Source: a virus (lineage: Duplodnaviria; Heunggongvirae; Uroviricota; Caudoviricetes). Taken from it: 40,315 nt of DNA. Shown here in pieces: positions 5,675-24,527 of this stretch. The DNA is taken from IMG/VR virus record IMGVR_UViG_2541047797_000007. One strand, written 5' to 3'. The first letter of the stretch is position 1; every line of letters starts with the position of its first letter. The notes under the pieces are model-generated. The model was given only the letters and a program-made list of their open reading frames with translations. It ran no database searches and was not told the origin of the DNA. The position numbers and the translations under genes are program-made.

Positions 5675-5696
5675 ATTACCTGAAAAACCACATATG
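5675..5696 (-). promoter_or_regulatory. Conserved motif (minus strand CATATGTGGTT-N5-GGTAAT) upstream of the tailspike/lysis cassette; candidate activator-dependent late promoter
   Basis: 18 of 23 positions are identical to a copy at 24506-24527 upstream of the portal operon. A TAGAAT -10-like hexamer follows on the minus strand, with no -35 match. Confidence 0.4.
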
Positions 5697-5724
5697 GATA
5701 GAAAGAGTATGAATACGAATAGAT

Positions 5725-5741
5725 ATTACCTTTCGGGTAAT
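5725..5741. promoter_or_regulatory. 17-bp operator-like palindrome ATTACCTTTCGGGTAAT
   Basis: Perfect TTACC-N5-GGTAA dyad, one of 15 copies in the prophage. Abuts a TTGCAA -35-like hexamer (5742-5747). Confidence 0.65.
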
Positions 5742-5779
5742 TTGCAAAACGTGCTGGATAGCAAACAAATTATTTGATA

Positions 5780-5795
5780 CTGTATAAATATACAG
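5780..5795. promoter_or_regulatory. LexA (SOS) box
   Basis: taCTGTATAAATATACAGtt is a perfect CTGT-N8-ACAG with an AT-rich centre. It lies 22 nt upstream of ATG 5818. Confidence 0.8.
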
Positions 5796-5817
5796 TTATT
5801 GCATGGAGAAGATTAAG

Positions 5818-6075
5818 ATGCAGCAGTATCACTATCCACTGGAAGAGGGATTTACCGAAAGGATTCACACGCCGGGAGGCGTCAGGTCACTGGTGGAGGG
5901 ATCGCACTTGATGAAATTACTCCGGGATCTCGATAAGGATGGATTTAATGTCGATGGCCCACTTGCCGAACTGACTGCACTGATTAACTACGTCACCAGC
6001 TCACAGATGTCTATGCAGGATCTGCAAACACATCTCGACTATTGTGCCGAACAATTACGAAAACAAACCAGATAA
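5818..6075 (+). CDS. Small SOS-controlled antirepressor candidate (paralog of the Ant C-terminal domain)
   Basis: 85 aa from the second ATG of ORF 5803..6075 (SD GGAG 5806-5809, 8-nt spacing). About 40% identical over about 77 aa to the C-terminus of the 218-aa antirepressor (shared PL..G...IH.P.GV..L.E.S.LM.LL..L..DG..V.G..AELT......Y........D.QTH..Y). A LexA box lies directly upstream. Confidence 0.7.
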   Translation: MQQYHYPLEEGFTERIHTPGGVRSLVEGSHLMKLLRDLDKDGFNVDGPLAELTALINYVTSSQMSMQDLQTHLDYCAEQLRKQTR

Positions 6076-6078
6076 GGT

Positions 6079-6107
6079 TTGCAATTACCAAATGGAGTGC
6101 TTATATT
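6079..6107 (+). promoter_or_regulatory. Sigma70-type promoter of the c4-like RNA/ant unit
   Basis: TTGCAA (6079-6084), 17-nt spacer, TATATT (6102-6107). The predicted +1 falls inside operator 6106-6122. Confidence 0.65.
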
Positions 6108-21578: not shown

Positions 21579-21586
21579 TTCCTCTC

Positions 21587-22288
21587 TTATTTGCCATAGA
21601 GCACTTCGGCCGCACTACGCTGGCCTTCATTACCACCGGTGACCATGCCATCTTCAGACATCGCCTTTCCGATTCTCACGAACGTTTTGACCAGATCAGG
21701 GTGATTACCCAGCCCGGTGGTGTTCAGATATTCTTTGAGTTCAGGTGTCCCGAACTGGTCAAGCGCACGCTGTGCGACGCTAAGGTTAGAAATCAACTTG
21801 CCGCCACCGATTTCTTTGTCAGCTTTTACATCCGCAGCCCACTGCTCGGTTGTTTTCTGCCAGGCTTCTGCCTGGCGCTGCTGAACACCTGCCAGAATCT
21901 TCGGATAAGCATCAACCAGCTTTTGCGCTTGCTCGTTGGTCAGGTTAAGTTCTCGCGCCACCGGCTCGAATTCCTTCAACGCTTCTGTATCCAGCTCTAC
22001 GCCTTCGGCAGCCTGAAACTCGTACTTCTCAGGCGCACCCTCTGGTTTATCGCCGTCCTTTTTTTCACCCTGCTTATCGTTTTCAGGCTTTTTGTCATCA
22101 GCAGGTTTATCGCCATCAGCAACAGGTTGTGGCTTATCACCTTCCGGTTGTGATGGATCACCAACTGGAGCAGGGTTATCACCTGCAGGCGCTGACGGTT
22201 CTGACGCAGCCGGAGCTGCTCCACCATCGACTGGTTGCTCATTGCAAAGACGGCGATACAGCAAACGCTCAAATAAATTCATGATCAC
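21587..22288 (-). CDS. Scaffolding protein
   Basis: 233 aa. Low-complexity Pro/Glu/Asp/Lys-rich N-half (PAPVGDPSQPEGDKPQPVADGDKPADDKKPENDKQGEKKDGDKPEG) and helical C-half. Lies between the portal and capsid genes. Confidence 0.7.
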   Translation of the reverse strand: MIMNLFERLLYRRLCNEQPVDGGAAPAASEPSAPAGDNPAPVGDPSQPEGDKPQPVADGDKPADDKKPENDKQGEKKDGDKPEGAPEKYEFQAAEGVELDTEALKEFEPVARELNLTNEQAQKLVDAYPKILAGVQQRQAEAWQKTTEQWAADVKADKEIGGGKLISNLSVAQRALDQFGTPELKEYLNTTGLGNHPDLVKTFVRIGKAMSEDGMVTGGNEGQRSAAEVLYGK

Positions 22289-22581
22289 TCCTGTTCACTG
22301 GCCTCTTTGGCCATCTTCAAATACTGTTCAGGGCAATGCGCCATAACGCGCTGAAACAGTTCCAGCGCCAGATTGCGTTGCCCCTCATTAAATGCCATTG
22401 CCATAGCGTCCATCGGTGAGATAGCGGAAAACACACGGCCTTTCTCCAGCACCGACCAGACAACGCGACGCCCCTGTTCACTGCTCATGACAAAGCGAAT
22501 GTCATCAATTTCACGCTGCGCCATGTCACGTTGCTTACGGGCGTTTTCTTCTTTCAGTTGATCGTCTTCGTAATCTGTCAT
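22285..22581 (-). CDS. Hypothetical head-module protein (98 aa)
   Basis: 4-nt overlaps with the portal and scaffold genes. Confidence 0.65.
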   Translation of the reverse strand: MTDYEDDQLKEENARKQRDMAQREIDDIRFVMSSEQGRRVVWSVLEKGRVFSAISPMDAMAMAFNEGQRNLALELFQRVMAHCPEQYLKMAKEASEQE

Positions 22582-24257
22582 TGTGATTGCCCACCCTGAC
22601 CACTAACTGCATTCGCCATAGATGACAAAACACTCGGATCCGAAGTTTTAGCTTCGCTTAGCGTCTTGGCACCCTGTGCCGCCGCCATCCCCATCGCCAT
22701 CATTTGTTGCTGCTGTTGTTGCTGTGCCCGTTGCTGGCGAGCCTGCTCAACCTGTTCCTGCGGAACAATGACGGTTGGAGACACTCCGGACATATCAGCG
22801 AATGCATCGATCGCCTGATCAACGTTGAGTTTGTCGAGAGCTTCTGGTTTCGCTTGCGCAAGTTGACCAATGAAGTTAACCGTGGACGCCAGACTGGACA
22901 GGCCGATAGACTTCTGCGCCTGAGCCATGACGGAAATGTATTCGACCTTCAGGGGCATACCTTCCATCACGTCTGGCGGTGGCGGCAGCATGTTTTTACG
23001 CACCATCATCGAGAAAGCGCGGTCAATGAGAGGATTAAGACATTCGTCGTTCAGACGCTCCAGAACCGGACCCAACATCAGAAGTTTTTCTTCTTTCATT
23101 TCGATCACCGCTTCAACAGGCATCGAGCGGGTATTGATGTTCTGCAACATCATGAACAGATCGACAAAGTAGGCGCTGTTAATGATTTGACGAGTGTCCT
23201 GAATGTCTGCTACCAGATCTGCTGTACTGGGGTTAACCAGATAAGCAGGCCTGAAACCATCCTGACCAGTAATCTGATCGATATACGTGATGTCGCCAGG
23301 AAGAAGGGAGGCGCGCTGATTCTTGAGGGAAGTCGGAGCAACCATCGGCGGATTGGTGGCTTTATCAATCAACTGCGACTTGCGCTTCTGGAGAAGCTGC
23401 AATGCCTTAACAGGTCCAAGCGCCAGCATACCCGGGCATGATGATCCATAAACATCTTCGCCGTTAACTTCCCAGCGCGGAGCCATAATTGGAAACTCAT
23501 CGAATCCGGACTCACGCAACAACTTGTCGTTATCACCGCCAACCTCGTAATAAACCGATTTGAATGGCTTGTTCTTGCTATCCAGCTTCGATGTATCGCG
23601 GTCAATGTTCGGGTAAACCGAATGCATCACTTCAATCCACTTCTCGTAGGTGCCGCTTTCCCACATGCTTTTTACGGATTCGCTGACGTTATTTAGCCCG
23701 AACTCCTGAACAAGCTGACGAACAGTCATAGAGAACTTGCGAAAACAGGTGTCCACACTGCCACGAGGTGAGTTAGCCAGGTAGTAACTGCCTATCGGGA
23801 ATGGCATTGTGCGAATGATGTCCTCGTCATCCTCCAGTACCGCCATTGCACCGGTGCTGTATGTGCCGAGGCTTCCGTATAACTGCGGCAGCGACTGATA
23901 GAGATTCGACTTATTGAACATATCGTTCATGCGGTTCTGCACCGCCTCAAGCCACAACTTAACAGGGCCATAATCCATCATTTCAGGATCTGGCGTAGCC
24001 AGGCGAAACCACGGACGCGCGGGGCTTGTGATGCCTGACATCATGCCGCTGGCGAGAGTGCGCGCCGCCATAGTCCCGGTCGAATCAATAATGCGTGTAT
24101 TGCGTCGATCGTTACGGTTGACCTCAGAAGTCAGAAAGCGGGAACCACGCGGGTTGATGTAATCACTCAACTCGCGCCAGTGCGGCTCGAACGACTGACG
24201 CTCGCTTTCAAGTTGTGCGAACTGTTTGTTCAATCGCTCTTTAGTTGTTTCCGCCAT
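22578..24257 (-). CDS. Portal protein
   Basis: 559 aa. First large gene after the terminase region. Gln-rich C-terminus. Confidence 0.8.
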   Translation of the reverse strand: MAETTKERLNKQFAQLESERQSFEPHWRELSDYINPRGSRFLTSEVNRNDRRNTRIIDSTGTMAARTLASGMMSGITSPARPWFRLATPDPEMMDYGPVKLWLEAVQNRMNDMFNKSNLYQSLPQLYGSLGTYSTGAMAVLEDDEDIIRTMPFPIGSYYLANSPRGSVDTCFRKFSMTVRQLVQEFGLNNVSESVKSMWESGTYEKWIEVMHSVYPNIDRDTSKLDSKNKPFKSVYYEVGGDNDKLLRESGFDEFPIMAPRWEVNGEDVYGSSCPGMLALGPVKALQLLQKRKSQLIDKATNPPMVAPTSLKNQRASLLPGDITYIDQITGQDGFRPAYLVNPSTADLVADIQDTRQIINSAYFVDLFMMLQNINTRSMPVEAVIEMKEEKLLMLGPVLERLNDECLNPLIDRAFSMMVRKNMLPPPPDVMEGMPLKVEYISVMAQAQKSIGLSSLASTVNFIGQLAQAKPEALDKLNVDQAIDAFADMSGVSPTVIVPQEQVEQARQQRAQQQQQQQMMAMGMAAAQGAKTLSEAKTSDPSVLSSMANAVSGQGGQSQ

Positions 24258-24271
24258 TTCAATGACTCCGG

Positions 24272-24478
24272 TTACTGACCAAGCAGCGTTTTACCGCTGG
24301 TATTAGCGGTTGATGTGTCGCCCTGAGAACCGGTAAGCAGCGTAGAACTACGACCAGCAGCAGCGCGACGGCGACGTGTTTCTTCGTCGCGGGCATCAAC
24401 AACGGCGGCATCCTGCTCCTGTGGTGCTGCCTGAACTTCTGGTGTTGCAGGCACTGATGGTGAGCTACCCATGCACAT
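24272..24478 (-). CDS. Small hypothetical protein (68 aa) preceding the portal gene
   Basis: SD GGAG 8 nt upstream of ATG 24478. Ends 14 nt before the portal ATG. The alternative frame 24259..24498 is less plausible. Confidence 0.5.
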   Translation of the reverse strand: MCMGSSPSVPATPEVQAAPQEQDAAVVDARDEETRRRRAAAGRSSTLLTGSQGDTSTANTSGKTLLGQ

Positions 24479-24505
24479 ATCAATGACTCCGTACGCAATT
24501 AAATT

Positions 24506-24527
24506 ATTACCAATTTAACCACATATG
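24506..24527 (-). promoter_or_regulatory. Second copy of the CATATGTGGTT-N5-GGTAAT motif, upstream of the 68-aa/portal operon
   Basis: The minus strand reads CATATGTGGTTAAATTGGTAATAATTT. It shares 11+7 identical positions with the copy at 5675-5696. Confidence 0.4.

Follow-up and report, generated by a model that had tools for sequence, protein, structure and literature searches.

How a temperate phage turns on its late genes when the tailspike and lysis genes are physically cut off from the rest of the virion operon is the question raised by IMG/VR virus record IMGVR_UViG_2541047797_000007, a stretch of 40,315 nucleotides that was analysed over its whole length and is called the window below. 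The window is a complete temperate podophage of the epsilon15/phiV10 type, assigned by megablast to the genus Uetakevirus (epsilon15, phiV10, SPC32H, phiv142-3), with segments of phiv142-3 and phiV10 reaching up to ~97-99% identity. A sequence-only reading of this DNA had pointed to a 23-bp motif upstream of both late units and had proposed it as the mark of activator-dependent late promoters. Our analysis indicates that the two sites are very probably late promoters that are composite and linked to the phage repressor, Rep. As to how they operate, the reading that we tentatively prefer is that both motifs form the cores of late promoters, P_gp3 (portal and virion operon) and P_tsp (tailspike and, in this phage, lysis genes), which are gated by Rep and need a phage factor that binds a second palindrome, termed the box.

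Gene identities were taken from family scans of the window proteins. On the minus strand lie the tailspike gene (3159-5621, start codon 5621), the lysis cassette (1289-3086) and the virion operon, which extends from a 68-aa gene, gp3 (start codon 24478), and the portal gene down to 8017. The tailspike unit and the virion operon are divided by an antirepressor island of opposite orientation, and two terminators face each other at this boundary, one at 7921-7939 (plus strand) that closes the island and a strong one at 8008-7991 (minus strand), upstream of the tailspike gene, that closes the virion operon. Beyond the latter, 2.3 kb antisense to the island precede the tailspike gene. Both the split and the facing terminators, which had been placed at 7921-8008, are borne out, and with the virion operon closed off by the strong terminator before the tailspike gene is reached, the tailspike would need a promoter of its own.

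The window has exactly two copies of the motif CATATGTGGTT-N5-GGTAATA, at 5696-5674 and 24527-24505 on the minus strand, and dinucleotide shuffles of the window gave no match. As had been claimed, the two copies agree at 18 of 23 positions; all five differences fall within N5. In both places the motif precedes the first gene of a late unit, with 48 nt to the tailspike start codon (5621) and 22 nt to that of gp3/portal (24478), both of which were confirmed. The sites had been located correctly, except that the 27-nt strings quoted for them end at 5670 and 24501 and not at 5675 and 24506. For comparison we used nine complete genomes and nine prophages, the latter from a collection with one genome per species, spanning Escherichia, Salmonella, Enterobacter, Klebsiella, Citrobacter, Kluyvera, Pseudocitrobacter, Erwinia, Scandinavium, Pseudescherichia and Superficieibacter. 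The diversity of these relatives came from a genome scan anchored on an 862-aa virion protein; a scan of viral contigs with the portal protein returned relatives that were all 99-100% identical and uninformative for covariation. The strict motif is found twice per genome in eight complete relatives. Ten further genomes or prophages have it too, namely Kp4865-1 and prophages from Citrobacter, Kluyvera, Klebsiella, Pseudocitrobacter, Erwinia, Scandinavium, Pseudescherichia and Superficieibacter. Wherever a genome extends over the two regions, both loci carry it (17-18 relatives, at least nine enterobacterial genera), so that the sharing of the motif by the tailspike and portal units extends to the relatives, and within those genera it stays unchanged at both loci against a background of diverging intergenic DNA. 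Spacing is fixed as well. From the late GGTAATA to the first base of a full Rep operator farther upstream there are +72 bp at gp3 (17 of 17) and +60 bp at the tailspike (15 of 15), with no indels. Upstream of gp3 the invariant string reads GTCAA..CTACG..AAATAA..C.TAT.TGGTTAAATTGGTAATAA.TTAA in all 17 genomes; upstream of the tailspike, invariance is limited to T.CATAT and GGTAATA.A.T (15 of 15 relatives).

From these conserved elements we predict a core that would be built in the order box, 5 nt, Rep half-site and -10, with the half-site GGTAAT at about -18 to -13 and the box in the place of a -35, centred near -29.5. P_tsp (5670..5699, minus strand) would comprise the box ATCCATATGTGGTT at 5699-5686, which overlaps a -35-like TCCATA (5698-5693), the half-site GGTAAT at 5680-5675 and the -10 TAGAAT at 5675-5670, with a predicted transcription start at ~5665-5663. 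P_gp3 (24501..24530, minus strand), which would serve the 68-aa gene and the portal operon, has the box AATCATATGTGGTT at 24530-24517, a -35-like ATCATA at 24529-24524, the half-site at 24511-24506 and the -10 TAATTT at 24506-24501, with a start predicted at ~24496-24494, and is followed by the gp3 Shine-Dalgarno sequence (24490-24487) and the ATG at 24478. Both sites have the T-12, A-11 and T-7 of a sigma-70 -10 element and an ATG 22-48 nt downstream. The -10 variants among the relatives are TAGAAT, TACAAT, TAAACT and TAAAAT at P_tsp and TAATTT and TAACTT at P_gp3. All of these substitutions preserve TAnnnT, which supports the hexamers TAGAAT and TAATTT, first noted as -10-like, as sigma-70 -10 elements. 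Nothing near TTGACA is found 16-18 nt upstream of them. The hexamers 17 nt upstream are indeed TCCATA and ATCATA, as earlier described, each with 3/6 matches in the window, and since the bases conserved there are C.TAT rather than TTG, the -35 region has not been kept as a sigma-70 hexamer, again in agreement with the first proposal. Over both hexamers P_tsp matches at 8/12 and P_gp3 at 6/12, compared with 10 for the early promoter PL, 9 for PR and 9 for the early/middle promoter Pmid. With so few matches, neither late site is listed by a sigma-70 consensus promoter scan of the window. The stretch from each motif to its start codon is free of terminators.

The right-hand part of the motif belongs to the repressor system. 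Rep (32914..33498, plus strand) has two helix-turn-helix domains (Pfam HTH_3 and an N-terminal helix-turn-helix), matches PDB 5D50, the SPC32H repressor, with an E-value of 4e-42, and is 42% identical to epsilon15 Rep, with the N-terminal domain better conserved. Presumably it reads TTACC-N5-GGTAA, of which the window has 14 sites (10 exact, 4 with one mismatch) against 0.62 expected. Thirteen of the 14 lie in regulatory gaps, the exception being 5494, within the tailspike gene; this one-mismatch site (TTACCGTTAAGGTCA, 5494-5508) may be a chance occurrence. There are three operators between rep and the cro-like gene, pairs at PL (33556, 33618) and Pmid (30451, 30513), a tandem pair on the terS promoter (27207, 27225) and sites at 6107, 7123 and 7224 in the antirepressor island. 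Full operators also lie 30-42 nt upstream of both late motifs. The one upstream of the tailspike, TTACCCGAAAGGTAA at 5726..5740, starts +60 from the late GGTAATA and abuts the -35 of the divergent promoter P_ant; that upstream of gp3, at 24569..24583, starts at +72 and overlaps the -10 of a divergent plus-strand promoter-like site.

This dispersed operator system is already known, given the epsilon15 annotation, the homology of Rep to 5D50 and the presence of the antirepressor Ant behind a LexA box. In the epsilon15 GenBank record, homologous 17-mers are annotated as 'repressor' sites, including upstream of terS, gp3 and the tailspike; the protein_bind feature at 19895-19911 is the homologue of the tailspike-side operator and that at 2931-2947 of the gp3-side one. 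That record has no such annotation in the gap between rep and the cro-like gene, where a lambda-like cluster of three operators is present in every genome (32796-32858 in the window, 33341-33402 in comparison locus L004). The GGTAAT(A) of the late motif is a half-site of this operator, and the motif can therefore not be kept as a single late-specific activator box. The distance from full operator to half-site is 62 bp at P_gp3 and 50 bp at P_tsp, the latter near the 48 bp of the outer OR operators. Of the 42 operator pairs that are at most 130 bp apart in nine genomes, 18 are spaced by 62-63 bp, and the pairs that flank PL and Pmid are separated by exactly 62 bp (63 in two cases) in all nine, which include comparison loci L004-L010 and L104. 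A half-site that never varies at -18 to -13, phased rigidly to a full operator, suggests a Rep tetramer that could bridge both sites; work on the SPC32H repressor has reportedly found such a tetramer with four DNA-binding domains. In the relative ZX5, overexpression of Rep abolishes the holin and endolysin transcripts, possibly as an indirect effect (PMC9782041). Other operator spacings that recur are 17-18, 30, 48 and 76 bp. At PL and Pmid the proximal operator begins immediately past the -10 (..AT|TACC). The tandem pair at 27207 and 27225 overlaps the likely terS promoter (27235-27249, minus strand), which has an extended -10 TGgTACTAT at 27247-27239 and no box and lies just past a terminator at 27276-27259.

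The left-hand part of the motif leads to a second palindrome. CATATGTGGTT falls within a 14-bp near-palindrome, AACCA-N4-TGGTT, of which ATCCATATGTGGTT and AATCATATGTGGTT are near-copies. With at most one mismatch this box occurs in the window at 5686, 24517, 32440 and 6066, and a degenerate copy is present at 3146, in the gap separating the tailspike gene and the lysis cassette. Eight genomes gave 41 box hits against 8.7 expected, and a Rep half-site lies within a few bp of 21 of the 41 against 0.43 expected, at a box-to-half-site distance of 3-5 bp. A 12-mer, AAAAACCACATA, has two copies, 30468-30479 and 5683-5694, with none expected by chance. It had been noted as a related box next to an operator and shared with the tailspike motif, which holds with the second copy moved from 5684-5695; the site, however, belongs to the early/middle promoter Pmid and not to a late one. 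Pmid (30451..30527, minus strand, upstream of a DUF1064 gene) has TTGATT at 30493-30488, a 17-nt spacer and TTTAAT at 30470-30465, with the half box TGTCTTATGTGGTT at 30480-30467 in the spacer and Rep operators at 30451-30465 and 30513-30527 on its flanks, 62 bp apart. Its layout is the same in all relatives, and in Tyrion the box is a near-complete palindrome (one mismatch in 10 specified positions). PL (33556..33632, plus strand) is built alike, with TTGACA at 33590-33595, a 17-nt spacer, AATTAT at 33613-33618, the half box AACCAGATACGCAT in the spacer at 33599-33612 and operators at 33556-33570 and 33618-33632, likewise 62 bp apart. Both promoters are consensus-like (9-10/12), and in all genomes the box occupies their spacer from -26 to -13. 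The box to which CATATGTGGTT belongs is not a late-only element.

Further boxes accompany other promoters. Past the terminator of the cro-like gene, a promoter-like site (32413..32473, minus strand; TTGATC at 32441-32436, a 17-nt spacer, CAAAAT at 32418-32413) lies upstream of a 66-aa Zn-ribbon gene (32181-32378) and the replication genes; it has a weak operator, GCACCTCAAAGGTAA, at 32473-32459 and a box perfect at the 10 specified positions, AACCAAATCTGGTT, at 32453-32440, which overlaps the -35. This site is conserved in epsilon15, SPC32H, PAT1, phiV10 and Tyrion. At the 3' end of the small ant gene the box AACCAGATAAGGTT (6066..6079) stands 4 bp from an ATTACC half-site, and it is also found in phiV10 and Tyrion. 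A perfect AACCATATATGGTT lies 7 nt upstream of TATAAT/TATGAT in the lysis promoter of phiV10 and Tyrion, and close copies precede the lysis cassette in epsilon15, SPC32H, PAT1 and a Klebsiella phage. In the phages with such a lysis-promoter box, an O-antigen gene of opposite orientation splits the lysis genes from the tailspike. The lysis genes of epsilon15, phiV10, SPC32H and Tyrion form a separate unit with its own operator, box and -10; in the window, where the lysis cassette comes directly after the tailspike, nothing more than a degenerate box, AACCGTAAATGGTG, and a TATACT hexamer is present at 3087-3159. BLAST with the lysis promoter returned only members of the same genus. No box at the canonical N4 spacing was found in any genome in the rep/cro intergenic region with its three operators. 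The box, the promoter-internal half-site and the late cores are unannotated in the epsilon15, phiV10, SPC32H and Tyrion records and were not found in the searchable literature.

What binds where, where transcription begins, whether a site activates or represses and which protein binds the box are our inferences from this arrangement, which would work as follows. In the lysogen, a Rep tetramer on the full operator 50 or 62 bp upstream would also contact the half-site inside the promoter and so shut the late promoters; from the same operator it would control the divergent promoter as well. Upon induction, LexA cleavage would allow Ant to be made and Rep to be released, after which a dimeric phage protein would bind the box. 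Where the box lies within the -35/-10 spacer, as at PL and Pmid, its binder would lower promoter activity, and where it replaces the -35, as at P_gp3, P_tsp and the lysis promoter of the relatives, the binder would recruit RNA polymerase. Extended to the genus, this would mean that Uetakeviruses possess a second dispersed palindrome, read by one phage protein (a conserved 112-aa protein or the second helix-turn-helix of Rep) that shuts PL and Pmid and activates late promoters of the type 'box + Rep half-site + -10', a generalisation that we regard as possible but less likely than not.

The best candidate for the box-binding late regulator is probably this 112-aa protein (27325..27663, minus strand; 115 aa from an upstream GTG at 27672), of the epsilon15 gp49/phiV10 p55 family. 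Its gene is the last of the Pmid operon, directly before terS, so the protein could also repress its own operon. It falls in PHROG 536, 'transcriptional regulator', and has no match in Pfam, NCBIfam or PDB. It appears to have a beta-alpha-alpha (ribbon-helix-helix-like) segment followed by a CxxC...CPC...C Zn-ribbon pattern. Listed homologs are at least 74% identical (74-99%; 79-92% for those aligned) and all enterobacterial where the source is named. In Vibrio K233-like phages a more distant homolog is encoded just before the late genes; in Yersinia P2-like phages one follows gpA. A box that is palindromic, absent at its canonical spacing from the rep/cro cluster, placed for repression at early promoters and lying over the missing -35 at late ones suggests an early-to-late switch protein. 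Scans of the small regulators against Pfam, PHROG and NCBIfam gave no hit labelled Lpa, Ogr/Delta, Mor/C or MotA, and their labels were generic, including PHROG 536, PHROG 868 'transcriptional activator' (37458-37757), whose phiV10 counterpart is annotated as PerC family, and an AlpA-like protein. The distant phages with homologs of the 112-aa protein (Yersinia P2-like, Vibrio K233 and phiKO2) have neither box nor Rep operator. Vibrio phage K233 (L102) has a 12-bp palindrome of its own, GTGACACGTCAC, twice within 8.7 kb, near 5520 and near 8215; one copy lies in the stretch that precedes the holin gene, the other 22 nt ahead of terS, and each is downstream of the 112-aa homolog.

Several observations weigh against Rep-gated promoters that need a box binder. 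The AF2 model of the 112-aa protein is of low confidence (pLDDT 61.5, pTM 0.29), and the protein is without a recognisable DNA-binding family. A lone half-site is a non-canonical Rep site, and the full operators upstream can be explained by the divergent promoters (P_ant and 24547-24575) alone. Half-sites and boxes are identical in all genera and so offer no covariation with Rep, the Cro-like protein or the 112-aa protein. The P_tsp box of Kluyvera and Pseudocitrobacter is degraded in its right half (CATATCAGCGCT, CATATAGTTGTT); TTCATAT and GGTAATAGAAT are retained there despite the decay. Box centres lie at -29.5 in P_tsp and P_gp3 of all genomes, -26.5 in the lysis promoter of the relatives, about -40.5 at 32440-32453 and -19.5 in PL and Pmid, and since the centre differs in this way among promoters there is no single geometry of activation. 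In most relatives P_tsp reads TTCATA-17-TAGAAT (9/12, with 4/6 at the -35) and might work by sigma-70 alone. Finally, the accessible literature yielded neither 5'-end data for transcription starts nor binding data for members of Uetakevirus. Dependence of P_tsp and P_gp3 on an activator is plausible, and the support for direct repression by Rep is no weaker.

A serious rival is control by Rep, possibly together with the Cro-like protein, with no activator at all. The late promoters would then be weak or moderate sigma-70 promoters that fire once Rep is removed, and the box an auxiliary site, for example for the second helix-turn-helix of Rep or for the 76-aa Cro-like protein, that aids repression or loop formation. 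The 9/12 match of TTCATA-17-TAGAAT in most relatives fits such a scheme, as do the boxes that adjoin Rep sites at 3-5 bp, their repressive positions in PL and Pmid, the two helix-turn-helix domains of Rep, a 62-bp geometry shared with true operator pairs and the repressor sites annotated at all late units of epsilon15. However, P_gp3 has just 6/12 consensus matches and yet would have to drive the most abundant virion proteins. The absence of a canonical-N4 box from the rep/cro operator region in any genome argues against a box that Cro or Rep needs, and many full operators are without a nearby box. Moreover, there would be no mechanism of delay, and the late genes would come on as soon as those for replication. 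We consider control by Rep without an activator somewhat unlikely, and retain Rep gating combined with a box-binding factor as the preferred reading.

The conserved blocks might instead serve the divergent promoters, namely P_ant with its LexA box and the TTGACA site at 24547-24575, or other functions at the DNA level, with the late genes expressed mainly by read-through. The second of these sites (24547..24575, plus strand; TTGACA at 24547-24552, a 17-nt spacer, TACCTT at 24570-24575) is back-to-back with P_gp3, has an invariant GTCAA and fixed spacing in 17 genomes and is a putative plus-strand promoter. Both full operators overlap or abut divergent promoters; GTCAA, CTACG and AAATAA upstream of the gp3 motif are invariant too; and the hairpin after terL has a poor minus-strand U-tract. 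The motif, however, lies 60-100 bp upstream of the predicted starts of the divergent promoters, on the side of the late genes, where a good -10, promoter-like substitutions and a Shine-Dalgarno sequence and ATG 22-48 nt downstream fit a promoter of the late strand. Furthermore, the terminator at 8008-7991 and 2.3 kb of antisense DNA separate the virion operon from the tailspike. Because of this terminator and the promoter-like pattern of substitution, read-through as the main source of late transcripts is improbable. A chance match or a functionless recombination scar, for which the AT-richness of the region and nothing else speaks, deserves almost no credence, as shuffles gave no match and invariance at both loci in at least nine genera effectively refutes it.

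Promoters for sigma-54, sigma-28 or sigma-32, sites for CRP, DnaA, IHF, ArcA, PhoP or NarL, and a Q-utilisation site were considered by inspection against consensus sequences and rejected for misfitting spacing or bases or for lack of conservation in the relatives. Late antitermination of the lambda Q type was also rejected, with no Q/gp23-like family among the early-region open reading frames (ORFs) scanned, no terminator between motif and start and a weak match to the consensus.

Among known systems, the nearest is the Rep regulon of epsilon15 and SPC32H. The operators of this regulon and its LexA-controlled Ant are said to have been described by Kropinski in 2007, Kim and Ryu in 2013 and Kim in 2016. 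The window shares with it the genus, a Rep homolog, an Ant that is 89% identical, a LexA box before ant and the same 15-17 bp palindrome, (A)TTACC-N5-GGTAA(T), in the same places, among them the regions before terS, gp3 and the tailspike; the epsilon15 annotation (GenBank AY150271.2), by contrast, stops at the full operators. Judged by its sequence features, namely a palindrome over-represented in intergenic regions and genes for a cognate Rep and a LexA-controlled Ant, the operator system of the window belongs to this regulon. In their working, the late sites would most resemble promoters of the P1 Lpa or T4 MotA type, in which a -10 is combined with a factor site in the place of the -35. Lpa-dependent late promoters of P1 have a normal -10 and a palindromic element near -22 in the -35 place, and operators for the C1 repressor are dispersed over the P1 genome. 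P1 thus offers parallels in its -10 with a palindrome for a -35, its activator gene under repressor control and its operators scattered over units. It differs in that no Lpa homolog was detected among the regulators tested here, that the element centre lies near -22 and not at -26.5 to -29.5, and that the palindrome in the present phages also occurs in early promoters and is coupled to repressor half-sites. Since no homolog of a known late activator or of Q was found among the regulators and early-region ORFs scanned and the element is a different one, membership in the P1 Lpa/T4 MotA class fails. Switch proteins such as phi29 p4 repress early promoters and activate late ones, and activators such as T4 MotA (at -30) take the place of a -35. 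The parallel is one type of site in repressive positions at early promoters and over the -35 region at late promoters without a -35; this is a functional analogy only, with no homology detected, and the box here is palindromic, unlike the MotA box.

A comparison with P22, in which immI separates gene 9 from the other late genes, had been suggested and is apt. Transcription of P22 gene 9 comes from P_ant and, through antitermination, from read-through of the late transcript that depends on gp23. Both phages have an antirepressor island that splits the tailspike from the late operon; here, however, the island is oppositely oriented, terminators face each other and the tailspike has a conserved, predicted promoter of its own. 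Mycobacteriophage L5 likewise has many dispersed repressor sites, including in late regions. Its stoperators are asymmetric, depend on orientation and act on elongation, whereas the sites here are palindromic, lie at promoters and often form 62-bp pairs.

Phages like epsilon15, phiV10 and SPC32H occur very commonly as prophages in E. coli, Salmonella and Klebsiella and serve as reporter phages. Their repressor/antirepressor switch has been solved structurally, the downstream regulon less so, and no description of their late-transcription timing was found in accessible sources. If the preferred reading is true, one short DNA segment would integrate immunity and timing, and direct silencing of the late operons by a Rep tetramer with four DNA-binding domains would be explained. 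A widespread family of hypothetical proteins would gain a function, and the design of late-expressed reporter insertions could be guided accordingly.

The 5' leader of the tailspike holds a stem-loop (5631..5667, minus strand) that ends at the Shine-Dalgarno GGAG (5632-5629) and folds as a single sequence at -20.9 kcal/mol (z -4.9). Comparable hairpins occur in four further relatives, so that five of the seven leaders folded have one, with differing outer stems. It is strong only in the window and epsilon15 and absent in the two most distant relatives folded, and RNAalifold found no conserved extended hairpin in the leader, recovering only three apical pairs.

On the other side of P_tsp, and divergent from the tailspike, a LexA box (5778-5797, plus strand; TACTGTATAAATATACAGTT, one mismatch to TACTGT-N8-ACAGTA, conserved in all relatives) precedes the small antirepressor gene ant (5803-6075), a 90-aa ORF whose product is 89% identical to SPC32H Ant. 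Farther into the island, on the plus strand, Rfam identifies isrK (6158-6234, 67.7 bits) and C4 antisense RNA (6259-6343, 61.2 bits) just upstream of an AntA/AntB-type antirepressor gene (6393-7049), in the manner of the immI module of P1/P7. Because isrK and C4 precede this gene, the island holds two antirepressor systems, a LexA-controlled small Ant and a C4-controlled AntA.

The remainder of the window comprises terS, terL and an early region with O-like and P-like replication genes (all from family scans), the Cro-like gene (32529-32759, minus strand) and, at the right end, the integrase gene. Judged by its ends (1-1071 and 39059-40315), the window appears to be a circularly permuted complete phage genome, and a DNA methyltransferase gene (1-516) and an uncharacterised gene (532-1071) lie between the integrase and lysis genes. 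Between terL and gp3, where ARAGORN found no tRNA and Rfam no family, a non-coding stretch at ~24665-24900 is ~80% identical to unannotated DNA of P1, P7, D6, lambdoid and Stx phages. Lying downstream of the divergent TTGACA promoter, it could be a non-coding RNA; in the phiv142-3 record, a tRNA-Arg is annotated near its counterpart.

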